Shown: positions 6,658-30,893, numbered from the stretch's first letter. The stretch: DNA of 32,366 nucleotides from an uncultured archaeon (GCA_964356075.1 CAYHGC010000002.1:1-32366); one strand, 5' to 3'. Notes: generated from the letters alone by a model not told the origin. Translations and numbers: made by a program.

Positions 6658-6696
6658 TCTTTTCCAGGGGTTCTTCGTTAGAAAGCGTTGAGAAGG

Positions 6697-6733
6697 GTTT
6701 TGATGAACCTTTTCTCAAAAGGTTCTGAGAAAC
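6697..6733 (+). promoter_or_regulatory. Leader stem-loop with box C/D-like GAU/UGA internal loop (kink-turn-type candidate)
   Basis: GUUUU-GAU-GAACCUUUU-CUC-AAAAGGUUC-UGA-GAAAC. It has a 9-bp perfect inner stem, a symmetric 3x3 loop giving tandem G.A/A.G plus U.U, and a 5-bp outer stem. Its sequence parts recur at 22084-22099 and 22144-22152. Confidence 0.45.
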
Positions 6734-6748
6734 ACGGAGGTGTGGAGA

Positions 6749-7117
6749 ATGGATCACGCAGAAGCAGGGAAAGAAATCCGCCGTGCGGTTGACACGGGAA
6801 AGGTATTGTTTGGGGGACGCGAGTCCACGTATGCCTTACGTCACGGCGAAGGGCAATTGTTGATTGTCACGCACAACGCGCCGCCACTGGTTTTAGACGA
6901 TTTGAAACACACCGCTTACTTGTCCGAAATCCCCGTGTACGTGTTCAAAGGAACGGGCCTCGAATTGGGATCCGTGTGCGGAAAGCCCTATGTGATTAGC
7001 ACCTTATTGGTTCTCGATGGGGGAAAGTCCAAAGTACAGGATTTAGCCACGCAAAAAGACGAAGGGAAAACCGTTGCGCCAAAAACGACGCGCGGACGGA
7101 AAAAGAAGGGAGTCTAG
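6749..7117 (+). CDS. rpl30e: 50S ribosomal protein L30e
   Basis: GKVLFGGRESTYALRHGEGQLLIVTHNAPP...IPVYVFKGTGLELGSVCGKPYVISTLLVLD indicates the L30e/L7Ae fold. Its position after rpoA2 matches other archaea. ATG 6749 lies 8 nt after GGAGG (6736-6740). The ORF-track start at 6740 is a GTG overlapping that SD. The protein has a K-rich C-terminal tail. Confidence 0.93.
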   Translation: MDHAEAGKEIRRAVDTGKVLFGGRESTYALRHGEGQLLIVTHNAPPLVLDDLKHTAYLSEIPVYVFKGTGLELGSVCGKPYVISTLLVLDGGKSKVQDLATQKDEGKTVAPKTTRGRKKKGV

Positions 7118-8224: not shown

Positions 8225-8302
8225 CCTTTTAGAAAAAGTTTAATCAAAAAGCTTCGCGATAACCTTTGCAAGCAAAGCTTAACCAAGCGGCTTCGTGATA
8301 AT
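8202..8302 (+). repeat. Three direct copies of the rps7 3' end (GCTTCGCGATAACCTTT)
   Basis: The identical 17-mer GCTTCGCGATAACCTTT occurs at 8213-8229 and 8251-8267; the first copy includes the rps7 stop TAA at 8222-8224. A degenerate copy GCTTCGTGATAAT lies at 8290-8302. Confidence 0.8.
8233..8250 (+). repeat. 18-mer AAAAAGTTTAATCAAAAA, copy 1 (just after the rps7 stop)
   Basis: An identical 18-mer is found at 15981-15998, just after the rps10 stop. Both copies are preceded by a short T run. Confidence 0.8.
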
Positions 8303-15980: not shown

Positions 15981-15998
15981 AAAAAGTTTAATCAAAAA
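15981..15998 (+). repeat. 18-mer AAAAAGTTTAATCAAAAA, copy 2 (just after the rps10 stop)
   Basis: Identical to 8233-8250. It is preceded by a T5 run (15974-15978). Confidence 0.8.
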
Positions 15999-19934: not shown

Positions 19935-21971
19935 ATGGTCGCATTTCGATATATTCTCCTGAGCCTCTTGATGGTTATCGCCTTGCCGTTGGCCCACGCG
20001 GCCGCGTCATGTAACGACCTCGACTTATCCCCTCTCGAAGTGACGCTCAAAGAGGACACGGATGGGAAGACCCTTTCGTTTGACTTTGAAAACAACGCTA
20101 CCGACGATTTTGAAATCGACGACGTGAAGGTTTCGGAGTCCAGCCCCTACTTCAATTTGACCGTGAAACAAATCCCTGATTTTGTCGATGAAGACGATGA
20201 AGTCTCGATCAAAATAGAATATGAAACTGTGGATTTGAACGCGGATAAATTTGATTCGTTCAACATTCAAGTGAAAGGAGAATTTGACGACGGAACGGAT
20301 TGTTCATTCTCGAACGTTTCATTCACGGTTGACGTGACGATTGAATCCACGGCCGACATGTGTGCATTAATCGAACCTACTTCTTCCGATGTTTCATTAG
20401 CCGAAAACTCTTCAATCTCGCACACCATTTCAGTAAGCAACCCCACGAATCAGGATTTCACCTTAACCGGATTTAATATTTTTGATGATTCATCCGCATT
20501 TAACGTGAAACTCGATCCGAGTTTTTCCAATTCCAACTTTGAAAAAACCATTCCAGCGAACACGACTCTCACCTACACGGTTGAAGTCAACTCGAACAAC
20601 GTCGATGGCGATCAAACCGACACGGCGTTCGTTGAAATCCGAGGAGAATTTGAAGATCAGAACGATTGTTCATTCACGGACATTTCAACTGAGTTTGATG
20701 TGAGTGTGGAAGAGGCCGGAACCAACAACGTCGTGTGTTCCGAAATCACCACCAGCATTCCGTTGGTGGAAGTCAACGCCAACGAGCCGACGCAATATTC
20801 TATTACACTCACCAACAAAGGCGACCAATCCTTCACGGTGGACGAATACACGATTACGGATCAAAACTACCAAGTGGAATTCCAACCCTTGTTTACACCA
20901 GACCAAATTGAAAACGGTACAAGTGAAAACTTAACATTCAACGCCATTGGATACGCGAATCCCCAATCGTTTGACGGAAACGCATTCCTCAATCTGAAAG
21001 GACACTTCACCAACGGGGGAACGTGTTTCATCAACGCTAAGAAATTCAACTACCATTTTACGGGAACGCAGGGAGCCACCTGCGGAGAATTCTATTCCAG
21101 CTTAGCGAACGTGGACGTGTTGAAAGGAACGACCCAAGAAACGGTGTTGTTCAACAACCCCCTCTCCCAAGCTGCGACGATTACCTTATCCATGACCAAT
21201 GGAAACGTCACCCCTAACAAAATTGTGATTCCCGCCGACTCGGCGAAATCATACACACTATATTTCTCGGACATCTCTCAAGACGGCATTTTATTGGTCA
21301 ACACGATCATTCCAGGTTGTACCATTCCGCAGAAACAAACCACCATTTTGTTCTCGGGATTGGAAAACGCTCCGGTGCAGCTGAAGAATCCTCCGTTCTC
21401 CATCGTGGTCGGATTGTCGAACGAATTTGCATTGCACGTGGAAAATCAATCCGCATTTACGCAAGAAGCGATTATTACGATTATCACGAAGCCGGACAAT
21501 CACTCGTTTTCAAAAACAATTTCCATTACGGGATTGGATGATCCTTTGATTTTCTTCCCCATGAGTCTCATCGCGGGAAAAGACGAAGCGATTGTTCAAG
21601 TCAAATCCGCGGGATACATTGTGTCGCACACGATTCACATTATCAATCCAGTCATTGTGGTTCCGCAGCCGGTTGAAAACCAAGGCGGGGTCATCACTAC
21701 CATCACGGGATTCTTCCTCATCGGAAATGGATTTTGGTTGGGATTGCTGATCGTTTTACTTTTACTTGCGCTTTGGTTAGTGGCACAAAAGAATGAAAAA
21801 ATTCAAGCGTTCATGATTCCGGTGAAACCGTCAACCAAATCCACGACGCTTGAAACAAAGTCCACTACAACCACTACGATTACCAAAACGCCCGCTCAGC
21901 CGGACTTAGAACTTCCTGAAGAACCCTGGATGAACCCTGCCAAGACGCTTGGGGAAGACTACCCTAAATAA
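19935..21971 (+). CDS. large type-I membrane surface protein with four Cys-bracketed beta-sandwich-like (CARDB/S-layer-like) repeats
   Basis: Signal peptide MVAFRYILLSLLMVIALPLAHA. Four modules of about 100 aa are bounded by Cys pairs C26/C123, C143/C245, C268/C364 and C383/C462. Each ends in a recurring motif: KGEFDDGTDCSF, RGEFEDQNDCSF, KGHFTNGGTCF. ITLTNKGDQSFTVDEY resembles CARDB. A TM helix lies at about aa 587-617, followed by a Thr-rich tail. Confidence 0.8.
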   Translation: MVAFRYILLSLLMVIALPLAHAAASCNDLDLSPLEVTLKEDTDGKTLSFDFENNATDDFEIDDVKVSESSPYFNLTVKQIPDFVDEDDEVSIKIEYETVDLNADKFDSFNIQVKGEFDDGTDCSFSNVSFTVDVTIESTADMCALIEPTSSDVSLAENSSISHTISVSNPTNQDFTLTGFNIFDDSSAFNVKLDPSFSNSNFEKTIPANTTLTYTVEVNSNNVDGDQTDTAFVEIRGEFEDQNDCSFTDISTEFDVSVEEAGTNNVVCSEITTSIPLVEVNANEPTQYSITLTNKGDQSFTVDEYTITDQNYQVEFQPLFTPDQIENGTSENLTFNAIGYANPQSFDGNAFLNLKGHFTNGGTCFINAKKFNYHFTGTQGATCGEFYSSLANVDVLKGTTQETVLFNNPLSQAATITLSMTNGNVTPNKIVIPADSAKSYTLYFSDISQDGILLVNTIIPGCTIPQKQTTILFSGLENAPVQLKNPPFSIVVGLSNEFALHVENQSAFTQEAIITIITKPDNHSFSKTISITGLDDPLIFFPMSLIAGKDEAIVQVKSAGYIVSHTIHIINPVIVVPQPVENQGGVITTITGFFLIGNGFWLGLLIVLLLLALWLVAQKNEKIQAFMIPVKPSTKSTTLETKSTTTTTITKTPAQPDLELPEEPWMNPAKTLGEDYPK

Positions 21972-22025
21972 TCCGGGCGTATTGATCTATTCTGTGGTGT
22001 TTATCGCACCCTTCTTGACGGTTGC

Positions 22026-22033
22026 TTTATATA
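22026..22033 (+). promoter_or_regulatory. Consensus archaeal TATA box (TTTATATA) about 240 nt upstream of rpl3
   Basis: A perfect TTTATATA. No credible ORF lies between it and rpl3. Confidence 0.5.
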
Positions 22034-22081
22034 CGTTTCTCGGGGAGAAATGGTGAGAATGAGGTAGACTGCTGACCCGAA

Positions 22082-22243
22082 AAGGTTTTGATGAACCTTC
22101 ATCAGAAACAGTGTTTCTGATGCCAGCAAACCAATGGTTTGCTAGGTTCTGAAAAGGTTCAGTAAATGCCCCGAAAAGTCCTCTTTTTGGTGCAGTTCGG
22201 CCTTTTAGGAAAAGGCCGGCGAAAAATAAACTACCTCGTTTTT
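22082..22243 (+). ncRNA. Hairpin-rich rpl3-operon leader or independent small RNA (candidate)
   Basis: Five stem-loops: 22082-22099, 22100-22122 (10 bp perfect), 22125-22143 (8 bp perfect), 22149-22162 and 22198-22218 (9 bp perfect). A T5 run follows at 22239-22243. It contains the UGAUGA...CUGA module shared with the rpl30e leader. Confidence 0.4.
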
Positions 22244-22269
22244 GAGCCAAAACCAGGGATGATACAAAA

Positions 22270-23316
22270 ATGACCCGCGCACGCCACAACCCTCGTCGAG
22301 GAAGTACGGCGTATCGTCACCGCTCGCGCGCCGCGAAACAAACGCCGAGCTTTAACTCCTTTCCCGAAATGAAAGGACCTTCTAAACCCTTGAACTTTTA
22401 CGGATACAAAGTGGGAATGATTCACGTCATTGCACAGTCTCTCCACCAGGGCGGACGACAAGACAAACAAGACATTCAAATCCCCACTACCGTTATCGAA
22501 TGCCCGCCCATCCATGTATATGGAGTCCGAGCCTATACGAAAGACGCGTATGGTTTGAAAGTCATGGGCGAAGTCACGGTGGATAAACTCGAAAAGTCCG
22601 CCATGAAACGTGTGCCTTCATTCAAAAAGAAATCAACGCACAAAAAACATCCTCATTCTGAAAAAACAAATCAAACCAAAACAACCGCAACAAAGATTGA
22701 AGATTTTGAAGCGAAGAAAGAACAAATTCACGCGATTCGCTTATTGATTCACACCCACCCGGAGAAAACCGCGTTCGGTAAAAAGAAAGCCGAGATGGCC
22801 GAACTCGCATTATCGGGAACCGTAGAAGAACAATTAACGTTTGCCAAAACCAAACTCGGACAAAACTTATCCGTGAAAGAAGTGTTTAAAGAAAATCAAA
22901 TCGTCGACACGAAAGCCGTCACACGCGGATTCGGATTCGGGGGAGTGATTGCGCGATACGGAGTCAAGACATTTCGACCCAAAGCAAAATACATTCGTGC
23001 GGTTGGATCCATTTCACCCTTGCGACCGGGAACGGTTCAATTTTCGGTTCCGCGACCCGGACAACTCGGATACCACAATCGTACCGAATTCAACAAAACG
23101 GTTTTGAAAGTAGAAACCGATGCCAAAAAGATTAATCCCAAAGCCGGATTCGAACATTACGGACCAGTGCAGAATGAATACGTATTGATCGCCGGAAGTG
23201 TCGGCGGACCCGTTAAACGATTAATCGGATTGCGCGAATGCATTCGACCGGATCAAACCAACCACTACAAAATCGGACCCGTTAAATTTGTCTCCACGAC
23301 AGGAAGTGCATTATAA
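22270..23316 (+). CDS. rpl3: 50S ribosomal protein L3 (uL3)
   Basis: 348 aa. MTRARHNPRRGSTAYRHRSRA, FGFGGVIARYGV, GQLGYHNRTEFNK. It contains a K/T-rich insertion (KKKSTHKKHPHSEKTNQTKTTATK). Confidence 0.96.
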   Translation: MTRARHNPRRGSTAYRHRSRAAKQTPSFNSFPEMKGPSKPLNFYGYKVGMIHVIAQSLHQGGRQDKQDIQIPTTVIECPPIHVYGVRAYTKDAYGLKVMGEVTVDKLEKSAMKRVPSFKKKSTHKKHPHSEKTNQTKTTATKIEDFEAKKEQIHAIRLLIHTHPEKTAFGKKKAEMAELALSGTVEEQLTFAKTKLGQNLSVKEVFKENQIVDTKAVTRGFGFGGVIARYGVKTFRPKAKYIRAVGSISPLRPGTVQFSVPRPGQLGYHNRTEFNKTVLKVETDAKKINPKAGFEHYGPVQNEYVLIAGSVGGPVKRLIGLRECIRPDQTNHYKIGPVKFVSTTGSAL

Positions 23317-30500: not shown

Positions 30501-30893
30501 ATGACACAAATCGACCCAATCGCAGACGCATTGACGAACATTCAGAACAGCGAAAACGCCTCCAAAAAGATTGTCACGATCATTCCGGGCAGTAAGCTTC
30601 TCGGACAAATCCTTCGCGTGATGAACGAAAAGGGATACGTGGGTAAAATCGAGGAAGTTTCCGATCGACACAAGAAGATGTACAAGGTTGAATTGGTGGG
30701 AAAAATCAACAAGGTTTCCGCCATTAAGCCCCGCTACGCCGTCAAACGAGACGACTTCGAACGCTACGAAAAACGATTCCTCCCGGCACGAGACATTGGG
30801 ATGATGATCGTTTCCACGTCGCAAGGCGTCATGACGCACGGAGAAAGCAAGGAGAAAGCCATCGGAGGGCGCTTGCTAGCCTACATCTACTAA
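30501..30893 (+). CDS. rps8: 30S ribosomal protein S8 (uS8)
   Basis: 130 aa. DPIADALTNIQNSENA...MMIVSTSQGVMTHGESKEKAIGGRLLAYIY. Confidence 0.96.
   Translation: MTQIDPIADALTNIQNSENASKKIVTIIPGSKLLGQILRVMNEKGYVGKIEEVSDRHKKMYKVELVGKINKVSAIKPRYAVKRDDFERYEKRFLPARDIGMMIVSTSQGVMTHGESKEKAIGGRLLAYIY

Follow-up and report, generated by a model that had tools for sequence, protein, structure and literature searches.

The window analysed here is a 32,366-nt stretch of DNA, contig 2 (CAYHGC010000002.1:1-32366) of the genome GCA_964356075.1, which carries a string of ribosomal protein (r-protein) genes on a single strand; the element in question is the structured RNA leader encoded between the promoter of this string and its first gene, rpl3 (Table 1). 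The genome (1.0 Mb in 113 contigs, 88% complete) is that of an archaeon of the Iainarchaeales (DPANN), and the sequencing runs listed for the locus place the stretch in groundwater DNA metagenome contigs only. According to Pfam matches and the layout of open reading frames (ORFs), the string comprises L3, L4, L23, L2, S19, L22, S3, SUI1, S17, L14, L24, S4e, L5, S8, L6 and L32e. An earlier note on this DNA had described the gap before rpl3 as an unusually long leader without a credible ORF, packed with five hairpins between a TATA box and the ATG. The TATA box, the five hairpins, the T5 run that follows them and the start codon were all verified on the sequence, an ORF check agreed that the gap holds no credible ORF, and the long structured leader is real: it begins at a TATA box that is conserved in the genus, from which transcription is predicted to start near 22056, given the usual archaeal distance of about 30 nt from the first TATA base.

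The abundance of hairpins in this segment is not an impression only, as the + strand of 22040-22272 folds with a minimum free energy (MFE) of -83.8 kcal/mol, compared with -57.4 +/- 4.2 kcal/mol in 200 dinucleotide shuffles (z = -6.27; 0/200 as good), and the - strand folds less well (z = -4.4). What the hairpins represent is a separate matter, since the leader consists of a conserved RNA core interrupted by copies of two dispersed repeats.

Table 1. Features of the rpl3 leader and of the adjoining gene string, in window coordinates (MFE, minimum free energy)
Feature	Position	Strand	Basis or remark
TATA box of rpl3 operon, TTTATATA	22026-22033	+	sequence; genus conservation
P1 5' strand, GAGGTAG	22061-22067	+	MFE folds; pairs with CTACCTC 22231-22237
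Core 5' half, GGTAGACTG = G-G-Y-A-N-A-C-U-G	22063-22071	+	alignments of leaders
P2 5' strand, CTGACCC	22072-22078	+	MFE folds; pairs with GGTTCAG 22156-22162
Hairpin 1, AAGGTT/AACCTT	22082-22087 and 22094-22099	+	sequence
Repeat module 1, long form (hairpins 1-4)	22084-22160	+	BLAST copies elsewhere; absent in relatives
Hairpin 2, 10-bp stem	22100-22122	+	sequence
Hairpin 3, 8-bp stem	22125-22143	+	sequence
Hairpin 4, CTGAA/TTCAG	22149-22162	+	sequence
P2 3' strand, GGTTCAG	22156-22162	+	MFE folds
Core 3' half, TAAATGCC	22163-22170	+	alignments of leaders
P3 hairpin, GCCCCGAAAAG-tcct-CTTTTTGGTGC	22168-22193	+	MFE folds; T5 tract 22184-22188
Repeat module 2 (hairpin 5 and tag)	22196-22229	+	hairpin CGGCCTTTT-agg-AAAAGGCCG, then tag GGCGAAAAA
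Hairpin 5, 9-bp stem	22198-22218	+	sequence
P1 3' strand, CTACCTC	22231-22237	+	closes whole leader; then T5 at 22239-22243
Shine-Dalgarno-like GGGATGAT	22256-22263	+	7-14 nt 5' of ATG
rpl3 (uL3), first gene of string	22270-23316, ATG at 22270	+	Pfam Ribosomal_L3, E = 3e-68
rps8 (uS8), candidate leader ligand (hypothesis)	30501-30893	+	Pfam Ribosomal_S8, E = 9e-27

Conservation and folding of the leader core

The regions upstream of rpl3 were compared among 15 genomes of the same genus and 14 other genomes of the order. Within the genus, the leaders share a single order of parts: a TATA block (GCTTTATATAcGTTTC); the sequence G-G-Y-A-N-ACUG about 42 nt further on, the spacing between the block and the ACUG core being 42-43 nt in the orthologues as it is in the window; a variable hairpin (P2); the sequence (G/A)UAAAUGCC; a second hairpin (P3), in which an A-run is paired with a U-run; the 3' strand of a closing helix (P1); a Shine-Dalgarno sequence (the 16S rRNA of relatives has the 3' end GGAUCACCUCCU); and the ATG. 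Among 40 distinct leaders, G11, A13, A15, C16 and U17 are invariant in the 5' half of the core and U49 and C51 in the 3' half, A46 and A47 are nearly invariant, N14 is variable, and position 48 is A in 33 of the 40. The window has the same succession of G-Y-A-N-ACUG, P2, UAAAUGCC and P3, interrupted by repeats.

A pattern search recovered the signature ACUG...UAAAUGC from 27 of the 30 rpl3 upstream regions, which represent 24 families of the order, and a variant of it (GAAAUGCC) was recognised by eye in G009 and G016. A covariance model built from 21 uninterrupted leaders (R1) has exactly one match per genome in 76 of the 151 Iainarchaeales genomes of an order-level sample; in a phylum-level sample, 69 of 151 genomes were matched, and none of these belongs to families f33-f37 (11 genomes), which are absent from the order-level sample. 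All 30 of the 30 best matches lie 24-250 nt 5' of rpl3 on the same strand, and the core is tied to rpl3 whichever gene stands upstream. On the window itself R1 recovers just two partial, non-significant pieces (22054-22105 and 22140-22197), because a stretch of about 89 nt inside P2 (ACTGC to GTAAATGC), mostly inserted repeat, separates the parts of the core. When the window's own genome was searched by pattern, the signature was found at the rpl3 leader and at one further place, on C58; the latter is within coding sequence, shows no hairpin and was taken as a chance match. The core is a single-copy RNA conserved across the Iainarchaeales, in at least 20 families, and as far as searched it is restricted to them.

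No known RNA accounts for it. The earlier note had proposed an Rfam scan of the leader; at gathering thresholds no match was found there or elsewhere in the window, and permissive searches (E <= 10 on 21900-22350; E <= 1 on seven uninterrupted orthologues) gave only chance-level matches, C/D small nucleolar RNA-like or unrelated. The covariance models of L4-Archaeoglobi and of every other Rfam family were unmatched in the window and the seven orthologues, and a scan of the window for tRNA and transfer-messenger RNA found nothing. RNase P RNA and signal recognition particle RNA were rejected as candidates, both mapping elsewhere (RNase P RNA at C5:5315-5569 of this genome; signal recognition particle RNA elsewhere in G016 and G033). 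Mimicry of 5S and 23S rRNA was rejected as well: the 5S rRNA of the lineage (GCACUGGG...UUGGAGCGAC) bears no convincing resemblance to the core, and a likeness to domain VI of 23S rRNA (GCACUGC...GGUAGC, as in Escherichia coli) is not matched by the lineage's own 23S rRNA. The core is a previously undescribed RNA.

The secondary structure supported by covariation comprises P2, P3, a local stem and P1; the hairpin P3 and the closing helix P1, both conserved, had been missed by the earlier reading. P2 is 98% paired in the 40 distinct leaders, with four of its six pairs changing on both sides and a covariation score that none of 500 shuffles reached. RNAalifold, applied to ten uninterrupted leaders of the genus, gives the local stem (G-G-Y-A/U-G-C-C), followed by an internal loop, P2 and P3; 10 of its 20 pairs are compensated, and on the genus alignment four to five pairs of P3 have changed on both sides. 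An oligo-U tract forms the 3' strand of P3: a run of at least five U within 45 nt 3' of UAAAUGC is present in 36 of 39 leaders, compared with 6.8% of control windows. P1 joins the first bases of the mRNA to the strand just 5' of the Shine-Dalgarno sequence, and relatives show compensatory changes in it (GAAGGUAGA/UCUGCCUUC, GGUACAC/GUGUAUU and GGCAAAC/GUUUUGCC; by eye, GAC/GUC, CAC/GUG and AAC/GUU at a variable position). Because the position of P1 varies, it was tested by cognate versus non-cognate pairing: the 5' segment of each leader pairs with its own downstream region at -10.3 kcal/mol and with those of other genomes at -7.6 kcal/mol (permutation p = 5e-5, a value that is only indicative because the leaders are related).

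The invariant strands have two mutually exclusive sets of partners. In the MFE folds, UAAAUGC is also paired with a GCAUUU-like strand 3' of P3, which creates a three-way junction whose junction bases are nearly all paired; in the local alternative, G-Y-A pairs with U-G-C, and the resulting hairpin has an internal loop that is small and asymmetric. Covariation links N14 to position 48 in the 40 leaders, never as a Watson-Crick pair and never with U (CA in 23, GA in 7, AC in 6, AA in 3 and AG in 1), and all seven non-A bases at position 48, from at least six families, stand with A14, a pattern consistent with non-canonical contact, made directly between the two bases in the local loop. Outside the genus (loci L077-L103), the loop of P2 is conserved as well, either as GAACC (in G030, G032, G037 and G025, among others) or as UAAAUCY (in G033, L097, L100 and L101, among others), which hints at a tertiary or protein contact.

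On the 5' side of the leader, the window encodes a 678-aa protein (19935-21971) without a Pfam match. In relatives, the gene 5' of the leader often ends in a hydrophobic segment plus EEPWM(N/H)P, and the recurrence of such a gene before orthologous leaders indicates that the upstream gene is partly syntenic in the genus.

Dispersed repeats inserted in the leader

The five hairpins that had been offered as evidence of a leader are real, but they belong almost entirely to two dispersed repeats (modules 1 and 2), which together make up about 110 of the approximately 214 nt of the leader. The earlier note had considered that the region might match a repeat family scattered across the genome; this was found for both modules and not for the single-copy core. 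Likewise, the comparison of rpl3 upstream regions among relatives that it had suggested shows the core to be conserved, but both modules to be absent from this site in the closest relatives.

Module 1 has the layout TTTTGATGAACCTT, hairpin 2, CC, hairpin 3, AGGTTCTGAAAAGGTTC. A search of its own genome found a copy with 84% identity at C65:3626-3704 and partial or variant copies on C75, C7 and C68; the long form equals a short form with two extra hairpins, and there are compensatory changes between copies. The two alternative partners of GAACCTT, which had been taken for a switch, are indeed present, but they are the design of the repeat (GGTT...AACC...AAGGTT), and the switch-like property belongs to the inserted family rather than to the leader. 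A 9-nt direct repeat, GAAAAGGTT, flanks module 1 (22079-22087 and 22151-22159) and is the sole possible target duplication, being in part the module's own GGTT...AAGGTT terminal repeat. Module 2, whose tag has the family form GGCGAAAA beside the hairpin, has further copies in its own genome at C5:22532, C48:97-122, C80:65 and C14:2117 and many copies with 85-100% identity in relatives of the genus and order. One or both modules were matched in 20 of 40 relatives, with 1-21 matches per genome for the two families pooled. Each module also brings in promoter-like sequence: module 2 supplies GGCGAAAAATAAAC (22218-22232), which resembles a transcription factor B recognition element and TATA box, about 40-50 nt before the rpl3 ATG, and module 1 supplies TTTTGATGAAC at 22085-22095; either could provide, to judge by its sequence, a start site within the leader, so that in this genome part of it would be bypassed.

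The closest relatives (G014, G011, G007, G005 and others) lack both modules at the corresponding site, and in G008, G012, G013 and G015 the P2 tip is occupied by different copies of repeats. In a MAFFT alignment of the genus, module 2 is a unique insertion; the alignment was used solely for this point because the inclusion of insertion-bearing sequences misplaced the 5' core. Since the modules recur at unrelated loci and are missing from the orthologous site, they are regarded as small mobile hairpin repeats that were inserted into a conserved leader, at sites that are tolerant of insertion (the tip of P2 for module 1 and the spacer between P3 and P1 for module 2). When 22088-22159 and 22198-22229 are removed in silico, a 125-nt RNA remains, which folds into P1, P2 and P3. 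The modules resemble the Correia and repetitive extragenic palindromic (REP) elements of bacteria and miniature inverted-repeat transposable elements (MITEs) in being short, palindromic, multi-copy and intergenic, in being polymorphic between close relatives, and in often lying flush against tRNA genes; they differ in that the only candidate target duplication overlaps the terminal repeat of module 1 itself. The MITE/REP-like traits, namely presence at many unrelated loci and presence/absence polymorphism, are held by the two modules only and not by the core.

Given this share of inserted sequence, the whole gap could be imagined as nothing more than palindromic repeats, mobile or of terminator type, that piled up behind the gene for the upstream surface protein and have no function specific to rpl3, and the T-runs inside the repeats could terminate transcription from either direction. 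Such an account is scarcely credible, however, because what remains after the repeats are set aside is a single-copy core, order-wide in occurrence and linked to rpl3 whatever lies upstream, in which three helices covary.

Another explanation for the segment 22086-22156 is that it is a C/D box small RNA (sRNA) or a kink-turn element that binds a protein of the L7Ae/L30e family, as UGAUGA (22089-22094) and CUGA (22149-22152) flank its hairpins, weak Rfam matches to C/D families were obtained (SNORD18, 17.7 bits, E = 1.2; sR7; sR3), and the same short hairpin, again with both boxes, precedes an L7Ae/L30e-family gene at 6740. These matches score 12-18 bits, however, against gathering scores of 37-43; other copies of the repeat have CUCA or CUAA as the D box and UGAUCA or UGAUUA as the C box; the box spacings of 21 and 26 nt are incompatible with guides of 10-12 nt; and the stems are conserved while the guide regions are not. 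The variation of the boxes among copies leaves a C/D sRNA or kink-turn unsupported, and very improbable here.

The L7Ae/L30e-family gene itself (PF01248, ORF 6740-7117) is preceded by a UGAUGA-hairpin-CUGA arrangement at 6693-6735 that resembles a kink-turn of the C/D type. A YUGWGAARCAC block before the Shine-Dalgarno sequence of its 5' untranslated region (UTR) is kept across the genus, and in G000 and G002 the 5' half of this UTR is a copy of the short repeat. An autoregulatory kink-turn has been reported for archaeal L7Ae, and by analogy this 5' UTR is possibly another.

The short element, TTTGATNAAMCYT followed by a hairpin AACCTTTT-loop-AAAAGGTT (also found in the form AACTTTTT-loop-AAAAAGTT), corresponds to the 5' core of module 1 and has at least 27 copies in the genome, mostly intergenic, at sites that include 6693-6735, 8236-8248 (- strand) and 15984-15996 (- strand) in the window and C3:5975, C10:1901, C12, C43:7202, C68:5257 and C78. 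At about 10 of 38 tRNA genes it ends 0-8 nt before the 5' end of the mature tRNA, which puts its TTTGAT at about -27 to -30, the position of a TATA box; leaderless tRNAs are not required, since an RNase P RNA is present. It is possibly a promoter, terminator or mobile element. Another conserved hairpin, CGGUGCGGCCG-loop-CGGCC, stands directly before several tRNA genes (Val-GAC, Ser-CGA, Asn-GUU) of this genome outside the window (C46:4440-4468, C54:6253-6281, C80:93-126, C48 and C40), sometimes after a repeat composed of the hairpin and GGCGAAAA.

Function of the leader RNA

Because the RNA is structured and single-copy, is linked to the gene that opens the string and begins at the string's conserved promoter, its best reading is that of an r-protein feedback leader: the segment from about 22056 to 22269 is probably the 5' leader of the rpl3-led operon, and its core a new element of this kind, lying between the conserved TATA box and rpl3 on the coding strand. 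A regulatory 5' UTR for r-protein feedback and/or attenuation was one of the two functions that the earlier note had offered, and it is the one that holds up best, although the conserved core lies between and around the repeats that make up nearly all of the hairpins cited. As for the protein, uS8 is suggested tentatively, by a resemblance of the invariant loop to its binding site; uL4, by precedent, and the other proteins of the operon would share the rest of the r-protein reading.

The site of uS8 in helix 21 of the 16S rRNA of relatives has A-A-G-U opposite A-(U/A)-A-C-U, and the leader loop has A-A-A-U opposite A-N-A-C-U, with coinciding invariant and variable positions. The equivalents of A640, A642, C643 and U644 (A13, A15, C16 and U17) are present in 40 of 40 leaders, and that of 641 (N14) is C, G or A. 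The A595-(A596-U644) triple and the U598-A640 pair are likewise accommodated, as far as compatibility of sequence goes, by the nearly invariant A46 and A47, by U49-A13 in 40 of 40 leaders and by U17-A in 39 of 40. Altogether six of the seven core positions are alike. In common with the S8 operator of the bacterial spc operon and with helix 21, the leader has a helix broken by a small asymmetric loop, its variable position at 641 and an invariant A at A642, and as in spc the gene for uS8 lies within the string that would be regulated. It differs in that G597-C643 is replaced, in that the leader hairpin closes the opposite side of the loop and is hence circularly permuted, and in that it heads a fused S10-spc-type string instead of standing before rplE.

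The closest published case is the L4-Archaeoglobi candidate, a structured RNA directly 5' of an archaeal rplC-rplD-rplW-rplB operon, which is included in Rfam, is known from comparative analysis only and was proposed as a feedback site for a protein of the operon (Eckert & Weinberg 2020; PMC7247131). The Iainarchaeales leader shares its place, its proposed role and its comparative kind of evidence, but has no match to it in sequence or structure, belongs to another lineage and has another fold and other invariant nucleotides. The S10 leader of E. coli, which mediates attenuation and translational control by L4, also fronts an operon with the genes of L3 and L4, and the conserved U-tract after the structured RNA in Iainarchaeales is compatible with attenuation; there is, however, no homology between the two, the first gene here is rpl3 and not rpsJ, and archaeal termination works without a hairpin terminator of the bacterial type.

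If the feedback reading is correct, the local hairpin, composed of the invariant strands and P2, would form first during transcription and would be the binding site of an r-protein encoded in the operon, for which uS8 is the best structural match and uL4 the precedent; free protein in excess would bind the leader and lower expression of the operon. By the time the U-tract is transcribed the local hairpin is already complete, whereas P1 and the extension of P3 depend on strands that are made later, so a bound protein could favour a stop at the U-tract, block the three-way fold closed by P1, or both. In its most specific form, a tentative proposal that is a good deal less probable than the feedback leader as such, the invariant loop would be the operator of uS8, and uS8, captured by the local hairpin as it emerges, would keep the transcript out of the three-way fold and favour a stop at the U-tract.

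Several points weigh against this interpretation. There are no RNA runs among those listed for the locus, so the start and end of the leader and the read-through into rpl3 are predictions. The equivalent of G597-C643 is not Watson-Crick in 39 of 40 leaders (A·C in most, C·C in 6, G-C in 1, C16 being invariant), which could reflect a deliberately weaker operator or could make the resemblance to the uS8 site a coincidence, and R1 has no look-alike in 23S or 5S rRNA at E <= 10. The covariation is compatible with both of the exclusive folds, so the active structure may be either the local hairpin or the three-way fold, and the covariation of N14 with position 48 could equally reflect an A-minor contact within the latter. 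When the local fold was forced in silico, the predicted accessibility of the ribosome-binding site went down in 14 leaders, up in 5 and was unchanged in 20 (39 leaders), with no change in the window (0.59 versus 0.56). A simple switch that works by sequestering the Shine-Dalgarno sequence was rejected as a general mechanism on these mixed results and because the distance from the motif to the ATG ranges from 24 to 250 nt, and it finds no support in the window either. Finally, half of the genomes of the order have no R1 match at E <= 0.01, which could be due to divergence, incompleteness or absence.

The leader may instead act in cis without binding an r-protein, either as a riboswitch that senses an ion or small molecule, or as an element of processing or stability that protects the 5' end or directs cleavage of the 5' UTR. 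Riboswitch aptamers are usually laid out as a three-way junction that has an invariant junction and a P1 extending to the ribosome-binding region, and the three-way fold of the leader has this layout, while its P1 buries the extreme 5' end of the transcript. There is also a reported precedent in a methanogen, where 5'-UTR processing stabilises and activates the mRNAs of r-protein operons (PMC5499594). No riboswitch class of Rfam was matched, however, and the invariant loop looks like a protein site. Metabolite sensors usually control several loci, whereas this element occurs once per genome and only before rpl3, which fits feedback by a product of the operon better than a metabolite sensor; a cis leader of this other sort is accordingly thought unlikely, though it is the foremost competitor of the r-protein reading.

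Less probable again is the second function offered by the earlier note, a separate sRNA of about 185 nt. In this explanation an independent gene with its own TATA box and an oligo-T end, some 180 nt long here and some 95-110 nt long in relatives free of insertions, would have been kept beside rpl3 by synteny and not by a role in cis. The closing helix does link the predicted 5' end to the strand that precedes the T5 run at 22239-22243, and a U-tract of at least five is conserved in P3; archaeal termination depends on U-tracts (PMC8716108). Against it, the gap from the end of the motif to the ATG is just 24-35 nt in relatives of the same genus and contains no second TATA-like box by eye, so that rpl3 would be transcribed through the element; several relatives (G014, G007, G003 and G001) have no T-run after the 3' strand of P1; and the element is co-oriented with rpl3 and directly upstream of it in all 30 of 30 cases.

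Implications

The r-protein feedback leader proposed here is small (about 95 nt without insertions) and is present as a single copy in at least 20 families of a DPANN order, and its invariant loop provides a testable hypothesis about the ligand. As the insertions show, the RNA tolerates additions of 30-90 nt at the P2 tip and between P3 and P1, which is helpful for the design of constructs. They also carry a caution for the reading of these genomes, in which the density of hairpins alone mostly reports mobile repeats. If the invariant loop is indeed an operator of uS8 that acts on the nascent transcript, this would be a first for feedback by uS8 among archaea, and the leader would also be an archaeal attenuator that a protein drives during transcription. 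The leader may offer a route to learning how archaea with genomes of about 1 Mb balance the synthesis of r-proteins and rRNA, and whether complexes of RNA and protein can regulate termination at U-tracts in Archaea.

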